Assembly: GCA_048885535.1 (NCBI GenBank)
Contig: JBHLLO010000034.1
Coordinates: forward strand, 1 to 30,659
Reading direction: 5' to 3'
Length of the DNA stretch: 30,659 nt
From: Candidatus Hermodarchaeota archaeon
GTDB taxonomy: Archaea; Asgardarchaeota; Lokiarchaeia; Sigyniarchaeales; SOKP01
The translations under genes were made by a program, and so were the position numbers. Position 1 is the stretch's first letter, and each line of letters opens with the position of its first letter. Below the pieces are notes generated by a model. That model ran no database searches and had not been told where the DNA came from. It saw nothing but the letters and a program-made list of their open reading frames with translations. Shown here piece after piece: positions 16,380 to 23,680 of the stretch.

Positions 16380-17567
16380 TCATTTTATCTCAATATCTAA
16401 TTTATCAATGATTTCCATAATGTCTAATACTTCAAAATTATAGTTGTAATCATTATTTGCATCCCTTAGATTTCTATAACAGAAGGGACATGTGGATGAT
16501 ATAACAGTAGCTTTTGTCTCTTTAGCCTCATCTAATCTTTCTTTCGAAATTTCTACCGACCATTCTGGATAACCAATCTTCACACCACCTCCTGCACCGC
16601 AACACCAAGCAAAATTCTTGTTTCTTTTCATTTCTACTAACTTTACCCCCGGAATCTTTTTATAAACCTCACGAGGGAGCTCATAAATTCCCATATGGCG
16701 ACCTAAGTGGCAAGGATCATGATATGTAACCGTAGAATTATATTCTGAATTGAATGCTATTTTTCCTTCATTTAACAATTGATGCACTAATTCGATTGTA
16801 TGAAATACTTTAAAGTCATAATTTATTCCAAATTTCTCAAAATCTTTCATAAATGTTCTATAGCAACCAGCACACGATGTAATAACTTTTGTAGCACCTA
16901 CTTTTTTTATTTGATCAAGATTATACATCATATAATCTTTAACAATTCCTAACTGACCCGTTCTAATCATAGGACTTGTACAGCAATGCTCATCAATTAA
17001 TGTAAAATCTATCCCTACTTTTTTTAAAAATCTCAGAGTAGCATCTCGTATATTTTGTTGTCTATAATTCGAAGTACATCCTATAAAGTAGATCCATTCT
17101 GCATTATCTGGAAGATTATAGTTTTTCTTTAACTCTTCATTATCAGAATTTGGCTCTCCATACGGATTACAATTTTCTTCACATCGAGATACTAACTGTA
17201 GCTGATTGGTTGCTGGACCAATATAGTTTACCGCCAGTTCCCTAAGGGATTCAATCATTTCAACAATGTAGTCAGCATGTGGAGCCTGACATGCATCTGA
17301 ACAAGCTCCACAAGTTGTGCAAGCAAAAATAGGATCTATTAATTCTTCATTCCACTCTAAATTTCCCATCAATACTCCACGAATGGTTCTAATACGGCCA
17401 CTTGGCCAATAAGATTCAAATAGATATTTCTCTCCTGATGGACAAATCTTCTCATAATTTTTAAAACCATATTTACATGTGCTACATTTAATACAATAAT
17501 CGAAAGCCATTTCAAGAAATTCCTTCCCATGCAAGTTTTGATCAATTTCGACCATTATAGATTCCAC
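16380..17567 (-). CDS. Fe-S/CCG oxidoreductase subunit (GlcF/HdrD-like)
   Basis: CIKCSTC...CP, CTTCGACSDAC, EHCC, SCAGC, YHDPCHLGRH, WCCGAGGG and CPFC; overlaps the upstream gene by 13 nt. Confidence 0.9.
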   Translation of the reverse strand: MESIMVEIDQNLHGKEFLEMAFDYCIKCSTCKYGFKNYEKICPSGEKYLFESYWPSGRIRTIRGVLMGNLEWNEELIDPIFACTTCGACSDACQAPHADYIVEMIESLRELAVNYIGPATNQLQLVSRCEENCNPYGEPNSDNEELKKNYNLPDNAEWIYFIGCTSNYRQQNIRDATLRFLKKVGIDFTLIDEHCCTSPMIRTGQLGIVKDYMMYNLDQIKKVGATKVITSCAGCYRTFMKDFEKFGINYDFKVFHTIELVHQLLNEGKIAFNSEYNSTVTYHDPCHLGRHMGIYELPREVYKKIPGVKLVEMKRNKNFAWCCGAGGGVKIGYPEWSVEISKERLDEAKETKATVISSTCPFCYRNLRDANNDYNYNFEVLDIMEIIDKLDIEIK

Positions 17568-19033
17568 CTCCCTGGATTGAAAATGTTATTTGGATCCATA
17601 CAACCTTTTATTTTTTCAAATAATTTAATCCAACCTGGATTGATTTTTTTTCTCATTTTTTCTGTCATCCACGTTGGTGTTTTATATGGGATACAACCAG
17701 CCTCAATACAGACATCAGCGATTTCATTCATGATTTCACTGATTAGATCTTCTTCCTTATATTTATTGTAAGGTAGAATTGGTCGAAAGATTCCATAATG
17801 TCCATATTTCATAATTTTTCCATAAATAATTGGACTATGATACTTGTATTTTTGGAATATTGCATCCGTTTTCTCGATTAATTCTTCAAATTTGTGAGTT
17901 GGAGCATAGCTTCCGAACCATGTAAGCCCCGACATGGGAACTGTGGGAAGAAGAACTGCTGGTAAATCATAAGCTTGTCTTGCTCTTAAGTCAAAAACTT
18001 TCACAAAATCATCAAAATCTAAAAGGAGAATCTTTTTCCCTTTATTATTGAGCTCATCAATTATGCTAAATAAAAGCTTCTTTTTTGCTTCAAATAATTC
18101 CTCAGTTTTAGCTGACATAGGCATAATTGCTATAAAATCTGGTTCACCGGGGAACTTTTTGGGATTTTCAATTTCGATAGCTAGTTTTACTGCCTGAATA
18201 TTAAAGTAATTAATATCATCTACAGTTTCAGATTTTCCCACTTCTCTTAATAATTCTCCAATATCAGTCAAACCAAAGACAAGGGCTACTATAGCTTTTT
18301 GAAAGGGATCATTTGGCCATAATTGAACAGCACATTTAGTAATCAAACCGGTAGTACCCTGCCAATTTACAAATAATCCTAATAAATCAGGCATAGGATA
18401 ACGAGACCACCAAGAATCCGGATCAGAATCTTCTAAGCCATAGAAACATGAACCAATCCTAGCAACGGTTCCATCAGCTAAAATCACTTCAAGGCCATTA
18501 ATTGAATCCCCCATTGAACCAATCTTGCATGATAGACTATTCATCCCACTTAAAATTGCATTTCCTACAACTCCTGCATAGGGGGGCGCATAAGGATAAC
18601 TATATCGTAAATGTGGATAATTTTCATCCAAATGTTTCTTTAATTGTCCAAAAGTAACTCCTGGTTCAAGTATAGCATACATCATAGTTTCATTCACATG
18701 TAAAATTTTGTTCATTTTTTTGCCAAAATCTACAATAATACCTCCTTGTTCAGGTATGGTCAATCCTCCTACATTATTGCCAGTTATATAAGGTGTAATC
18801 GGTATATGATTGATATTACAGTATTTAACTAATTCTATAAGTTGATTATCATTTTCAGGAATGACCACAAAATCAGGCATATGTGGTTTAGTCTCTGTCA
18901 TATCGTAGGAATATGGATATAAATCAACTTTTTTAAGAGAAACGTTTTCTGAACCAAAAATTTCTACTAGTTTCTTATAAATTTCTTCTTTACTAGCTTT
19001 TTCAAATATATTCCTTTCTTTTATTTGAGTCAT
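17555..19033 (-). CDS. FAD-binding oxidoreductase (VAO/PCMH - GlcD superfamily)
   Basis: PDFVVIP, LEPGVTFGQL, GLEVILADG, PDLLGLFV..QGTTGLITK and C-terminal DPNNIFNPGRW. Confidence 0.9.
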   Translation of the reverse strand: MTQIKERNIFEKASKEEIYKKLVEIFGSENVSLKKVDLYPYSYDMTETKPHMPDFVVIPENDNQLIELVKYCNINHIPITPYITGNNVGGLTIPEQGGIIVDFGKKMNKILHVNETMMYAILEPGVTFGQLKKHLDENYPHLRYSYPYAPPYAGVVGNAILSGMNSLSCKIGSMGDSINGLEVILADGTVARIGSCFYGLEDSDPDSWWSRYPMPDLLGLFVNWQGTTGLITKCAVQLWPNDPFQKAIVALVFGLTDIGELLREVGKSETVDDINYFNIQAVKLAIEIENPKKFPGEPDFIAIMPMSAKTEELFEAKKKLLFSIIDELNNKGKKILLLDFDDFVKVFDLRARQAYDLPAVLLPTVPMSGLTWFGSYAPTHKFEELIEKTDAIFQKYKYHSPIIYGKIMKYGHYGIFRPILPYNKYKEEDLISEIMNEIADVCIEAGCIPYKTPTWMTEKMRKKINPGWIKLFEKIKGCMDPNNIFNPGRWNL

Positions 19034-20871: not shown

Positions 20872-21906
20872 CTATAAATTAATAAGGCTATATTCAACAA
20901 ATTTAAGAGGATCTATAGCACACCCACTTGAATCTAATCCTCCCAATTCATTTAAAATTTTTTCGTCGATAGGATTATTGTTAAGCCATAAATCTTTTAA
21001 ATTTAACAAAGATTCTAACCCTTTAATTTTAGTAATTTGATTATTCCCTAAATCTAGTGTCTCAAGCTCTTGAAGTGTTTCCAGACCTTTAATCGTAAAA
21101 ATTTTGTTTCCAGAAAGAAACAATTTGTTTAATTTAGTTAATGGATACAAACCCTCAATTTGAGTAATTTTATTCTCTTTCAAATTTAATACTTGAAGGT
21201 TTCTACAATTCTCTAACCCTTGAATTTGTGCAATTTGATTCGCTGTAATCCAGAATGTTTCTAGTTGTTGAAGCGAATCTAATCCCTTTAATTCCTTTAT
21301 TAAATTTTCATTCAAATATAATTCTTTTAACTCAATTAAATTATCCAACCCCTCTATTTTTGAAATTTGGTTCCCTGCAAGATTTAAAACTTTTAGTTTA
21401 CTTAAATTATTCAAACCCTCTAACTTCTTAATTTGATTTCCTGCTATCCAGAGTACCTCTAGATTAAGTAAAGAATCTAATCCTTGAAGCTTGTTGATAG
21501 CATTCCAAGATAAATCTAACTTCTTTAGTGAATGTAATGAATCTAGCCCTTTAATATGTTCAATTTGATTTCCTCTAAGATACAATTCTTTTAAATTAAC
21601 AAGTTTTTCTAATCCTTTTATCTCCTTTATTTGATTTGAAGCTAAGTGTAGAACTTCTAATCTCTCTAATTTACTTAACCCAGAAATCTCAATAATACTA
21701 TTACTTCCTAAGTTTAAAATCTCTAATGATTTTAGATGTTCTAAATTCTTAATTTCTTGTATCTCATTTGAACTTAATTCTAAATGCTTTATATCTATCT
21801 TTTCCAAACCCTTGATTTCGGAAATATTTGCAATGCTAAGTAACCCAAGATCAAGAAAACCTTCCTTAATTTCATATTTCTCGCCCTTGATTTCCACATA
21901 ATTCAT
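20872..21906 (-). CDS. Leucine-rich repeat protein, SDS22-like 22-aa repeats
   Basis: About 13 repeats of LxxLxxLxLxxNxIxxIxGL. Confidence 0.92.
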   Translation of the reverse strand: MNYVEIKGEKYEIKEGFLDLGLLSIANISEIKGLEKIDIKHLELSSNEIQEIKNLEHLKSLEILNLGSNSIIEISGLSKLERLEVLHLASNQIKEIKGLEKLVNLKELYLRGNQIEHIKGLDSLHSLKKLDLSWNAINKLQGLDSLLNLEVLWIAGNQIKKLEGLNNLSKLKVLNLAGNQISKIEGLDNLIELKELYLNENLIKELKGLDSLQQLETFWITANQIAQIQGLENCRNLQVLNLKENKITQIEGLYPLTKLNKLFLSGNKIFTIKGLETLQELETLDLGNNQITKIKGLESLLNLKDLWLNNNPIDEKILNELGGLDSSGCAIDPLKFVEYSLINL

Positions 21907-22068: not shown

Positions 22069-23034
22069 TTAATCAGAAAAATAATATTCAATATCATCAT
22101 TCATATTCAAAATTTCAGAGATTGCCTCAGAAAGCTCTTCATGTGAAATTTTATTTACATCAATAAATTTCTTTGCTAAATTATAATACTTTTTCTGAAC
22201 CTCTGGAGTTGAAAAGTTCTTTAGTTTTGAGCTGAAAGAATATAAATACGAGTAAACTTCCTTATATTGACCATAAATAATAGATCTACCAGATAAAGTA
22301 TCCAAGGTCGATTGCAATGACTTTTTTGCTTGAGATAAGTAATATGTTAGACGAATTTTATTATCATAAATTTCATCATTTAATGATTTTGCGCGTTTTT
22401 GATATGCTACTAAAGTTTGATTGTCTTCCAGATCCTCACAAAAATTTATGATATTTTGACAAATTATTAACTTTTTTATAATATTATTCTCTTTTTCAAA
22501 GTTTTTCAATGCCTTTTCTCTTTTTTTTTTAATTTCTTCGATTTCTTCTCTTAACTTTTCTGATAGTTCTCCTTTCTGCGTCCAAATCGATTTTAAAATA
22601 TCCCCCTGCTTTTCAATTAATAACATAGGATCAATAATTTTTTTATAAGAGAATATCAGGGTATTAATTTCTTCATCAAAATTTTCATAAAGTGTTCGAT
22701 CTATACTCTCATTTTGAAATAGAGTTTTATATTTCAATATTATTTTAATTAAATCAGAGAATAATTTTTCCACAATTTTATAATCCTCTTTATCAGCAAT
22801 AATAATAATATCAATTAAATAGTCTGGTATCTTTGTTGCGTAAGCATTGACTTCTCCTAAACCTATAGTTTTTATCTCTTGAGATTGTTCTGGTATTACA
22901 CTAGATATAAACCTTTTCAAGGCAGTATAAAAAGAGCCAAATAACTCCATCGGTCTATCGCTTTTAACTTTAAAATGCTTTTCATATAAAAGTGTTCCCG
23001 TTTTGGATTGATAAAGAAATAGAAAATAAAGCAT
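22069..23034 (-). CDS. Longin-like N-terminal domain protein with helical C-terminus
   Basis: N-terminal hydrophobic strand, then GTLLYEKHF...LFGSFYTALKRFISSV...IKTI, the pattern of Asgard longin-like domains; coiled-coil middle. Fold call is by pattern recognition only. Confidence 0.6.
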   Translation of the reverse strand: MLYFLFLYQSKTGTLLYEKHFKVKSDRPMELFGSFYTALKRFISSVIPEQSQEIKTIGLGEVNAYATKIPDYLIDIIIIADKEDYKIVEKLFSDLIKIILKYKTLFQNESIDRTLYENFDEEINTLIFSYKKIIDPMLLIEKQGDILKSIWTQKGELSEKLREEIEEIKKKREKALKNFEKENNIIKKLIICQNIINFCEDLEDNQTLVAYQKRAKSLNDEIYDNKIRLTYYLSQAKKSLQSTLDTLSGRSIIYGQYKEVYSYLYSFSSKLKNFSTPEVQKKYYNLAKKFIDVNKISHEELSEAISEILNMNDDIEYYFSD

Positions 23035-23206: not shown

Positions 23207-23320
23207 ATGCTAGTTTGTCAAACTTGTGGAACAATAATTTCTGGAAGGAAGGAAGGACATTATTATTGTAATAATTGCGGTAAAGTTACATATCACCTTT
23301 CAGTTAGGTTTAAGTGATAA
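23207..23320 (+). CDS. Zinc-ribbon microprotein 1, candidate selenoprotein (36 aa if TGA 23315-23317 is a stop; 37 aa ending in Sec if recoded, then TAA)
   Basis: MLVCQTCGTIISGRKEGHYYCNNCGKVTYHLSVRFK-TGA-TAA. CxxC-x13-CxxC, paralogous to 23525-23680. Not in ORF track. Confidence 0.8.
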
Positions 23321-23347
23321 TATGCAAAGAAAATAATGTCAAAGATT

Positions 23348-23414
23348 AAAGTTAGAATGAAACTTATATTGAAATTTTAGATATAAGCGGACAACCCTGT
23401 GAGGGTGACTTTTT
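23348..23414 (+). ncRNA. SECIS-like kink-turn RNA element in the 3' UTR of microprotein 1
   Basis: AUGA at 23357-23360; stem CUUAUAUU(23363-70)/GAUAUAAG(23380-87); apical AAA at 23372-74; GA at 23390-91 exactly in register for tandem sheared G.A pairs. Flanking helices are possible. Confidence 0.6.
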
Positions 23415-23494
23415 GTATTTATTCATAATTTCCAGATTTCGATTATTAGGAATTAATTATCTCTCTAAAATATTTTTCTGTTATAAAAAGAAGA

Positions 23495-23524: not shown

Positions 23525-23680
23525 ATGAAAACAGTAGTTTGTAAGGAATGTGGTTTTTCAATTGAGAATAAAGAACCTGGAATTTATTATTGCGAAAATT
23601 GCTTGAAAAAAAAGAAATTTTTTAAAGTCCAAGCGTTTTGTGGAGCAAAGCCAGATAATAAACTTTATAAACATAATTAA
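23525..23680 (+). CDS. Zinc-ribbon microprotein 2 (51 aa; Cys paralog)
   Basis: MKTVVCKECGFSIENKEPGIYYCENCLKKKKFFKVQAFCGAKPDNKLYKHN*. CxxC-x13-CxxC plus a fifth Cys. Not in ORF track. Confidence 0.82.
   Translation: MKTVVCKECGFSIENKEPGIYYCENCLKKKKFFKVQAFCGAKPDNKLYKHN

Follow-up and report, generated by a model that had tools for sequence, protein, structure and literature searches.

Asgard archaea are so far credited with seven selenoprotein families, namely SelD, FrhA/VhuU, HdrA, FrhD/VhuD, PrxL, AhpF-N and DsbA-like proteins; the list in the main text of Huang 2024 (PMC11227280) holds no zinc ribbon, and a May 2026 review (PMC13188914) gives the same seven families in its main text. Here, a locus is described on a contig of 30,659 nucleotides (nt) from a Candidatus Hermodarchaeota archaeon of the class Lokiarchaeia (JBHLLO010000034.1, contig C34 of a 3.09-Mb genome with 30% G+C); this whole stretch is called the window. 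A short open reading frame (ORF) in it, ORF1, ends in TGA-TAA and is followed by a selenocysteine insertion sequence (SECIS) of the lineage type (lokiSECIS). With a probability of roughly 0.87, ORF1 is a genuine selenoprotein gene, the family of which is undescribed and confined to a single family of Lokiarchaeia; its UGA very probably encodes selenocysteine (Sec) as the last residue. The literature search found no description of this family in the main texts, and the supplementary tables of PMC4989117 and PMC11227280 may differ and may list further candidates.

The Asgard genes known to depend on a SECIS (VhuU/FrhA, HdrA-VhuD and PrxL; PMC4989117, PMC11227280) have in common with ORF1 a eukaryote-like type I SECIS in the 3' untranslated region (UTR), and the AUGA_AA and GUGA core variants seen in some ORF1 orthologs are reported for Asgard SECIS as well. 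In contrast, the ORF1 protein is unrelated to the seven families, to which the Pfam and NCBIfam scans gave no homology, and its putative Sec is the last residue.

C-terminal Sec has been reported from bacteria. In the preprint bioRxiv 10.1101/2022.07.06.499078, SaoC is described to end in Cys-Sec-COOH with a coding UGA followed by UAG, and a DUF466 family to end in Lys-Cys-Sec-COOH; NCBI's Prokaryotic Genome Annotation Pipeline (PGAP) is stated there to be unable to predict C-terminal Sec. These proteins resemble ORF1 in the terminal position of Sec, in the UGA followed by a real stop, in the existence of homologs ending in Cys and in genes that look truncated in databases. They differ from it in being bacterial, with a SECIS hairpin of the bacterial type immediately behind the UGA, in lacking a zinc ribbon and any sequence similarity (NCBIfam scan), and in a Cys-Sec motif where ORF1 would have Lys-Sec. 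FmdB (TIGR02605, motif UxxU; Table 1 of PMC13188914) is, like the predicted ORF1 product, a small CxxC...CxxC zinc-ribbon selenoprotein. It is listed on the basis of bacterial genomes and metagenomes, and its Sec residues replace those Cys that form the zinc knuckle, whereas the Sec of ORF1 would be an extra C-terminal residue, with a further one at the fourth knuckle Cys in a single ortholog (L089). The NCBIfam scan of ORF1 at E≤10 matched neither SaoC (NF040734) nor FmdB.

ORF1 and its terminal UGA codon

ORF1 lies on the forward strand (23207..23317) and comprises, from the ATG at 23207, 36 sense codons and the putative Sec codon. The product contains a CxxC-x13-CxxC pattern and a tail ...SVRFK, and 12 residues past the second CxxC pair follows the TGA (23315..23317), which would be read as residue 37, the last one. 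The next codon, TAA (23318..23320), appears to be the true stop.

Codons were compared in 55 distinct orthologous genes of standard spacing, all from one Lokiarchaeia family and all of identical length; two further TGA-type genes (L089 and L095) fall outside this pattern and are left out of the count. Codon 37 is TGA in 50 genes and TGT in five, and TAA or TAG in none, so that the in-frame UGA is kept in orthologs as expected of a selenoprotein gene. The codon before it varies synonymously (AAA 34, AAG 21). All 55 genes, from eight genera, have a stop at codon 38 (TAA 44, TAG 11, TGA 0). Elsewhere in the genome TGA is a normal but minor stop. It terminates 14.4% of 1794 ORFs of at least 200 amino acids (TAA 71.6%, TAG 14.0%) and stands directly before another stop in 16 of them. 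As an internal control, paralogs of the ORF2 and ORF3 types end in TAA 24 times, TGA three times and TAG once (28 distinct genes).

These counts bear on a first alternative, in which the UGA is a normal stop with a second one behind it and the SECIS-like element is a conserved 3'-UTR kink-turn hairpin that serves, e.g., mRNA stability, the binding of an L7Ae-type protein or termination. A run of T residues behind the element would suit such a role, and the short distance between UGA and element, taken up below, speaks for it as well. An ordinary stop is difficult to reconcile with TGA in 50 of 50 non-Cys genes at a genomic frequency of 14.4%, and together with the evidence from the element itself this makes the alternative very unlikely.

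One may also suspect that ORF1 is not translated at all, the locus being a small RNA gene and the reading frame a chance product of A+T-rich sequence. The frame has only 36 codons, its exact 36-amino-acid sequence is absent from a collection of 15 billion proteins, and a search for RNA data, which covered 10 runs, found none. However, across the three codon positions diversity amounts to 0.362, 0.285 and 0.53, with no insertion or deletion in the 55 genes, and the excess at third positions shows coding constraint. In 14 aligned orthologs, which share 43–86% identity with the window protein, there is no variation in the four Cys, in Gly17 and Lys26 or in the RFK tail; moreover, paralogs of the same fold exist, and a public record of a relative holds an unnamed 39-amino-acid protein that ends at the Lys before the UGA. 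The chance that ORF1 is merely part of an RNA gene is accordingly close to nil.

The SECIS element behind ORF1

The core of the element (23357..23391, forward strand) follows the published geometry of lokiSECIS (PMC4989117), with AUGA (23357-23360), a 9-nt arm (23361-23369), an 11-nt A-rich loop of the pattern xxAAAxxxUAG (23370-23380), a second 9-nt arm (23381-23389) and GA (23390-23391). Seven of the nine stem positions pair in the window. Orthologous elements have six to nine of nine pairs and loops of 11–12 nt, and the AUGA and GA columns vary little or not at all among 14 orthologs. As a sole criterion this geometry is weak evidence, as 215 sites with at least 7/9 pairs occur in the genome. 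The top geometry matches adjoin genes with in-frame TGA, namely two HdrA-VhuD clusters, VhuU, a 170-amino-acid ORF and a small membrane-like ORF, and the SECIS loops of these genes share the loop pattern of the window element.

Two covariance models were used. The first (R1) was trained on 14 ORF1-type elements from different genomes, including that of the window, so that its score for the window element (60.7 bits; next-best match in the window 16.6 bits) is high by construction. In the window's genome it also finds the SECIS of HdrA-VhuD three times (37.3, 36.4 and 34.6 bits), of VhuU (29.0 bits) and of the 170-amino-acid ORF (22.3 bits). The second (R2) was derived from six SECIS of other genes in the window's genome, three from HdrA-VhuD clusters, one from VhuU and two from other TGA-containing ORFs, and contains no ORF1 element. 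It recovers the window element with 38.6 bits (E 5.5e-07) as the sole match under E 0.05 in the window, where the runner-up reaches 17.4 bits (E 0.054). The window element and the SECIS of HdrA-VhuD and VhuU fall into one covariance family, which argues against a mere 3'-UTR kink-turn hairpin behind an ordinary stop.

Covariation gives a consistent picture. In the 14 orthologs 94.4% of the stem cells are paired and seven of nine pairs show compensatory changes; none of 500 shuffles reached the covariation score, and in controls slid along the alignment only 22.8–47.4% of the cells pair. RNAalifold predicted the same stem together with a small hairpin behind it. Plain folding of positions 23300-23440 gave no signal (z -0.16), and scans of the window with Rfam and ARAGORN returned no matches, although Rfam may hold no model of the Asgard SECIS.

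The G+C-rich mini-hairpin directly 3' of the core (23394..23406, forward strand; 5 bp with a 3-nt loop) recurs in relatives. A hairpin of at least 4 bp lies 1–3 nt past the GA in 46 of 53 SECIS matches, and one with at least three G-C pairs in 22 of the 53, compared with 52 of 5000 random genome positions. Within the window's genome the mini-hairpin is also found behind the SECIS of VhuU, of one HdrA-VhuD cluster and of a small ORF on contig C15. It may belong to the SECIS or serve as a 3'-end signal, and a T5 run close behind it (23410..23414, forward strand) may act as an archaeal transcription stop. In one clade a lower stem is possible, in which TACCCT upstream of AUGA pairs with AGGGTA downstream. 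Neither the mini-hairpin nor the lower stem is described in the consulted parts of the SECIS literature.

Co-occurrence of TGA and SECIS in related genomes

Syntenic copies were collected by a DNA search of 40 related genomes, and a profile of the 14 orthologs was run against 154 genomes of the order and 400 genomes of the phylum. At E≤0.01, matches were found in 100 of the 134 other genomes of the window's family, ORF2-type paralogs counted, and in none of the 19 genomes from the order's three other families. In the phylum set at E≤1e-4, 80 of the 134 genomes of the window's family matched; outside this family two weak zinc-ribbon matches were obtained, in one other family.

From these searches 61 loci (L037-L097) were retrieved. 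In 51 of them, a gene with 36 codons (in one case 39) has TGA behind it, directly before TAA or TAG, and L089 adds a 52nd TGA-type gene; together, TGA-type genes span eight genera. L089 (G148:C10:34655-35568, reverse strand) is an ORF1 ortholog in which the fourth zinc Cys is replaced by a second TGA (CPL-U), besides the terminal one, and a single SECIS stands behind both (R1 50.4 bits). Five loci (L072, L078, L080, L082 and L084) have genes ending ...KC-stop. The remaining four are without an ORF1-type gene in the retrieved part; three hold other paralogs only, and in the fourth (L096) the region upstream of the SECIS match was not covered.

The SECIS follows the TGA closely. R1 matches 53 of the 61 loci, that is all 52 with a TGA-type gene, 14 of which had been used in its training, and L096; R2, with no ORF1 element in it, matches all 51 TGA-type genes outside the window (22.9–50.8 bits). 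Four TGA-type elements that are weak under R1 (17.8–25.1 bits) score 36.1–42.3 bits under R2. Neither R1 at E≤1 nor R2 matches any of the five Cys-type loci. The element is thus present in 52/52 TGA-type and 0/5 Cys-type genes, and this loss together with the change to TGT is the pattern expected if the SECIS were maintained only for the UGA of ORF1. An ordinary stop offers no reason why the element should be missing in exactly the five TGT genes, and no gene on the forward strand lies upstream that the SECIS could serve instead, as the upstream gene (22069-23034) is on the reverse strand.

The same comparison speaks to another possibility, in which the SECIS is the decaying relic of a longer ancestral selenoprotein that was cut by the TAA, leaving the UGA to terminate only. 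In the window the frame indeed stays open for 19 more codons past TGA-TAA, and ORF2-type paralogs run 11–15 residues past the Cys aligned to the UGA. Such a truncation would have to be old, with codon 38 a stop in every gene of all eight genera, and the SECIS has nonetheless been kept with compensatory changes and is gone where TGA became TGT. In addition, the spacer shows no conservation of a coding kind, and in relatives it contains more stops. A relic therefore seems highly improbable, less so than an RNA gene and more so than an ordinary stop.

Selenocysteine machinery of the genome

The genome in which the window lies is predicted to use Sec. The tRNA-Sec (61.2 bits) and the SepSecS gene adjoining it (486 bits) are both over cut-off, as is SelD (186 bits), which has one in-frame TGA. 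An EFSec/SelB-like candidate on the contig of the tRNA-Sec reaches 230.4 bits against the cut-off of 242 of a bacterial model, and a PSTK-like candidate 166 bits against 290.5; the EFSec and PSTK models were not built on Asgard sequences, and both candidates are the best matches under cut-off.

Loss of the Sec trait was considered as the cause of the Cys-type genes and rejected, since SepSecS is present in 5/5 Cys-type genomes and tRNA-Sec was uninformative. The Cys forms are hence not by-products of Sec loss.

Next to SepSecS, an 89-nt tRNA-Sec occupies the same position in the window's genome (G000) and in G099 and G117. Three other genomes have a 117-nt match of 34.6 bits, below cut-off, beside SepSecS (G078:C86:59756-59872, G108:C48:22637-22753 and G082:C41:175206-175322); they probably represent tRNA-Sec genes interrupted by an insertion or intron, which escape detection at the Rfam cut-off.

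The initial annotation had proposed a candidate new selenoprotein on the basis of a UGA aligned to Cys and a 3' SECIS, and had named three observations that would speak against it, i.e., a genome lacking the Sec machinery, TAA or TAG at this codon in orthologs, and TGA-bearing orthologs without the hairpin. None of these was found in the codon column, the co-occurrence count or the machinery searches described above, and the comparison with published Asgard selenoproteomes likewise turned up no zinc-ribbon family in the main texts. Its readings of the sequence agree with the coordinates given here: ORF1 ends in TGA-TAA, the TGA and the aligned Cys of ORF2 are both at +13 with a Val at +9 in common, and the ATGA at 23357 begins 40 nt past the last base of the TGA.

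Distance between UGA and SECIS, and points that weigh against recoding

The stop and the SECIS are separated by a non-coding spacer of poor sequence conservation (23321..23356, forward strand). Counted from the first base of TGA, the SECIS starts after 42 nt in the window, and the distance from TGA to AUGA is 33–55 nt in 51 of the 52 TGA-type genes and 143 nt in one (the value for L089 was counted by eye). In other TGA-containing genes of the genome, the stop lies 0–8 nt from AUGA or is the UGA inside AUGA, compared with 33–52 nt between an ORF1-type stop and its SECIS.

Several observations weigh against the view of ORF1 as a selenoprotein gene, and the first of them concern this distance. 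The nearest internal TGA in those other genes is about 59 nt upstream of the SECIS; the 42 nt of ORF1 are shorter, and its recoded UGA would be nearer to the SECIS than any internal TGA in the other TGA genes examined in this genome. According to Mariotti et al. (PMC4989117), UGAs adjacent to lokiSECIS escape recoding, and a minimal-distance requirement is proposed, which also favours an ordinary stop. Two of the nine stem positions of the window element, beside the AUGA core, are mismatched. U was given to MAFFT as C, which favours a common Sec/Cys column, though the alignment is gapless from the first CxxC to this column. The orthologs come from related genomes of one family, so that the counts are not independent events and overstate their number, and the Cys forms of ORF1 may represent only one or two events. 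Finally, all five Cys-type genomes have kept SepSecS, and tRNA-Sec is over cut-off in two of five TGA-type and one of five Cys-type genomes, a marker that does not separate the groups.

Cys-containing and other paralogs

ORF2 (23525..23680, forward strand) encodes a 51-amino-acid paralog with the same CxxC-x13-CxxC pattern, in which Cys39 (TGT, 23639-23641) stands in the Sec column and is followed by a C-terminal extension (...FCGAKP...). In this column, ORF2-type paralogs have Cys, and paralogs of a third type have Asp. Cys homologs aligned to the UGA, as known from other selenoproteins, are thus provided by the five ...KC-stop genes and by the ORF2-type paralogs.

The initial annotation had regarded ORF1 as a 37-amino-acid zinc-ribbon protein with terminal Sec and ORF2 as its Cys backup. 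The first part is supported, and no known selenoprotein family had been recognised in it, in line with the Pfam and NCBIfam scans, which gave none over cut-off. The second part did not hold, because ORF2 represents a longer, separately conserved paralog subfamily that many genomes carry next to ORF1. As for genuine Cys forms of ORF1, these end in Cys-stop and sit in other genomes. The annotation also suggested that the two proteins may form a pair responsive to redox state, metal or selenium.

A shorter paralog ending ...YFS was seen at two loci (L091, G084:C30, and L093, G061:C45), its stop being TAA at one locus and TGA at the other. These paralogs show the ordinary stop-codon variation that ORF1 lacks.

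Fold and possible role of the ORF1 protein

A zinc ribbon is predicted from the four invariant Cys in two CxxC pairs and from the beta-strands of the AlphaFold2 models, which number three to four overall. ORF2 is modelled with four strands at a predicted local distance difference test (pLDDT) score of 80.1 and ORF1 with the same topology at 69.5, its ...RFK-Sec tail being unstructured. No Pfam or NCBIfam model matched the ORF1 protein over cut-off, generic zinc-ribbon matches staying below threshold. A Foldseek search against the PDB gave no match at E≤0.001, and a search of the ESM Atlas returned unnamed clusters only. Generic zinc ribbons (HVO_2753-like, TFIIB/Rrn7 ribbon, bL33 and RpoP) are similar in their two CxxC knuckles and small predicted beta-sheet; they differ in that no curated cut-off is reached and the weak Foldseek neighbours all have E≥0.86. 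To our knowledge, none of these generic families has a terminal Sec.

The exposed terminal selenol on the basic ...RFK tail would be the reactive group, and we give about even odds to a redox or metal/metalloid-binding role. We favour such a role since the Sec column of the paralogs is occupied by Cys or Asp, and each of the three residues could plausibly act as a nucleophile or metal ligand.

Gene context gave no lead to a function, as it reflects synteny within one genus. In 30 related loci, the neighbours include a leucine-rich repeat (LRR) protein (22 loci), an AlaX-like protein (13 loci) and an uncharacterised protein of about 340 amino acids (12 loci). In the window, the LRR-repeat protein (20872-21906) and a 321-amino-acid protein without Pfam match (22069-23034) lie upstream of ORF1, both on the reverse strand.

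Proposed mechanism and implications

In the order of the mRNA, 36 sense codons for a four-cysteine zinc ribbon would be followed by UGA, then by UAA or UAG, a non-coding spacer of about 30–50 nt, the eukaryote-like type I SECIS and the small G+C-rich hairpin. The SECIS would recruit Sec-tRNA(Sec) and the elongation factor, so that UGA is read as Sec; the ribosome would then stop at the next codon and release a product of 37 residues with a Sec-COOH end. Failed recoding would yield the same protein minus its last residue. With Sec as the last codon, the non-coding spacer may have been kept just long enough to bring the UGA within reach of the SECIS, and its length would then reflect a minimal UGA–SECIS distance. 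That Sec is actually inserted at this UGA, and how efficiently, we infer from the sequence.

A more far-reaching proposal, which we regard as rather doubtful, is that ORF1 represents the first archaeal selenoprotein whose sole Sec is C-terminal, that its eukaryote-like SECIS recodes a UGA merely 33–55 nt upstream with termination at the next codon, which would make it a natural test case of minimal spacing, and that selenium supply gates a one-residue switch between Lys-COOH and Sec-COOH ends which might work with the Cys paralog. If true, a partnership with the adjacent Cys paralog could be imagined, e.g. by formation of a selenylsulfide or by sharing of a metal or metalloid ligand.

In silico, it is well supported that the ORF1 family is a lineage-restricted, SECIS-dependent selenoprotein gene, unusual in its predicted terminal Sec and in the short UGA–SECIS spacing. 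The seven published Asgard families were found by homology to known selenoproteins (PMC11227280), whereas the ORF1 family emerged from the SECIS and UGA themselves and has no known relatives; this suggests that surveys relying on homology miss part of the Asgard selenoproteomes. Gene callers cannot see a terminal Sec, since the protein already seems complete when the UGA is reached, and standard tryptic proteomics would miss it because cleavage after Lys36 would release Sec alone. The conserved 33–55 nt gap also bears on how near a eukaryote-like SECIS may be to its codon, a question that matters for how the eukaryotic Sec system arose from archaea.

Further candidates in the same genome

Two more selenoprotein candidates that are not on the published lists were noticed in the window's genome, on contigs C58 and C15. 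On C58 (18050-19750, L033) lies the ORF of 170 amino acids mentioned above, with two adjacent in-frame TGA codons in a motif GC-U-U-E. Its lokiSECIS at 18196 is on the reverse strand, 8 nt past the stop of the ORF (R1 22.3 bits).

The second candidate, on C15 (16100-17500, L034), is an ORF of about 65 amino acids with a hydrophobic stretch and a motif GGG-U-PC. Its in-frame TGA precedes a lokiSECIS at 16465 by about 59 nt, and the AUGA supplies the stop. Outside the seven published Asgard families, this ORF may be another new selenoprotein. In a paralog 878 nt downstream, CGA (Arg) takes the place of this TGA, and the loop of its SECIS-like element is degenerate.

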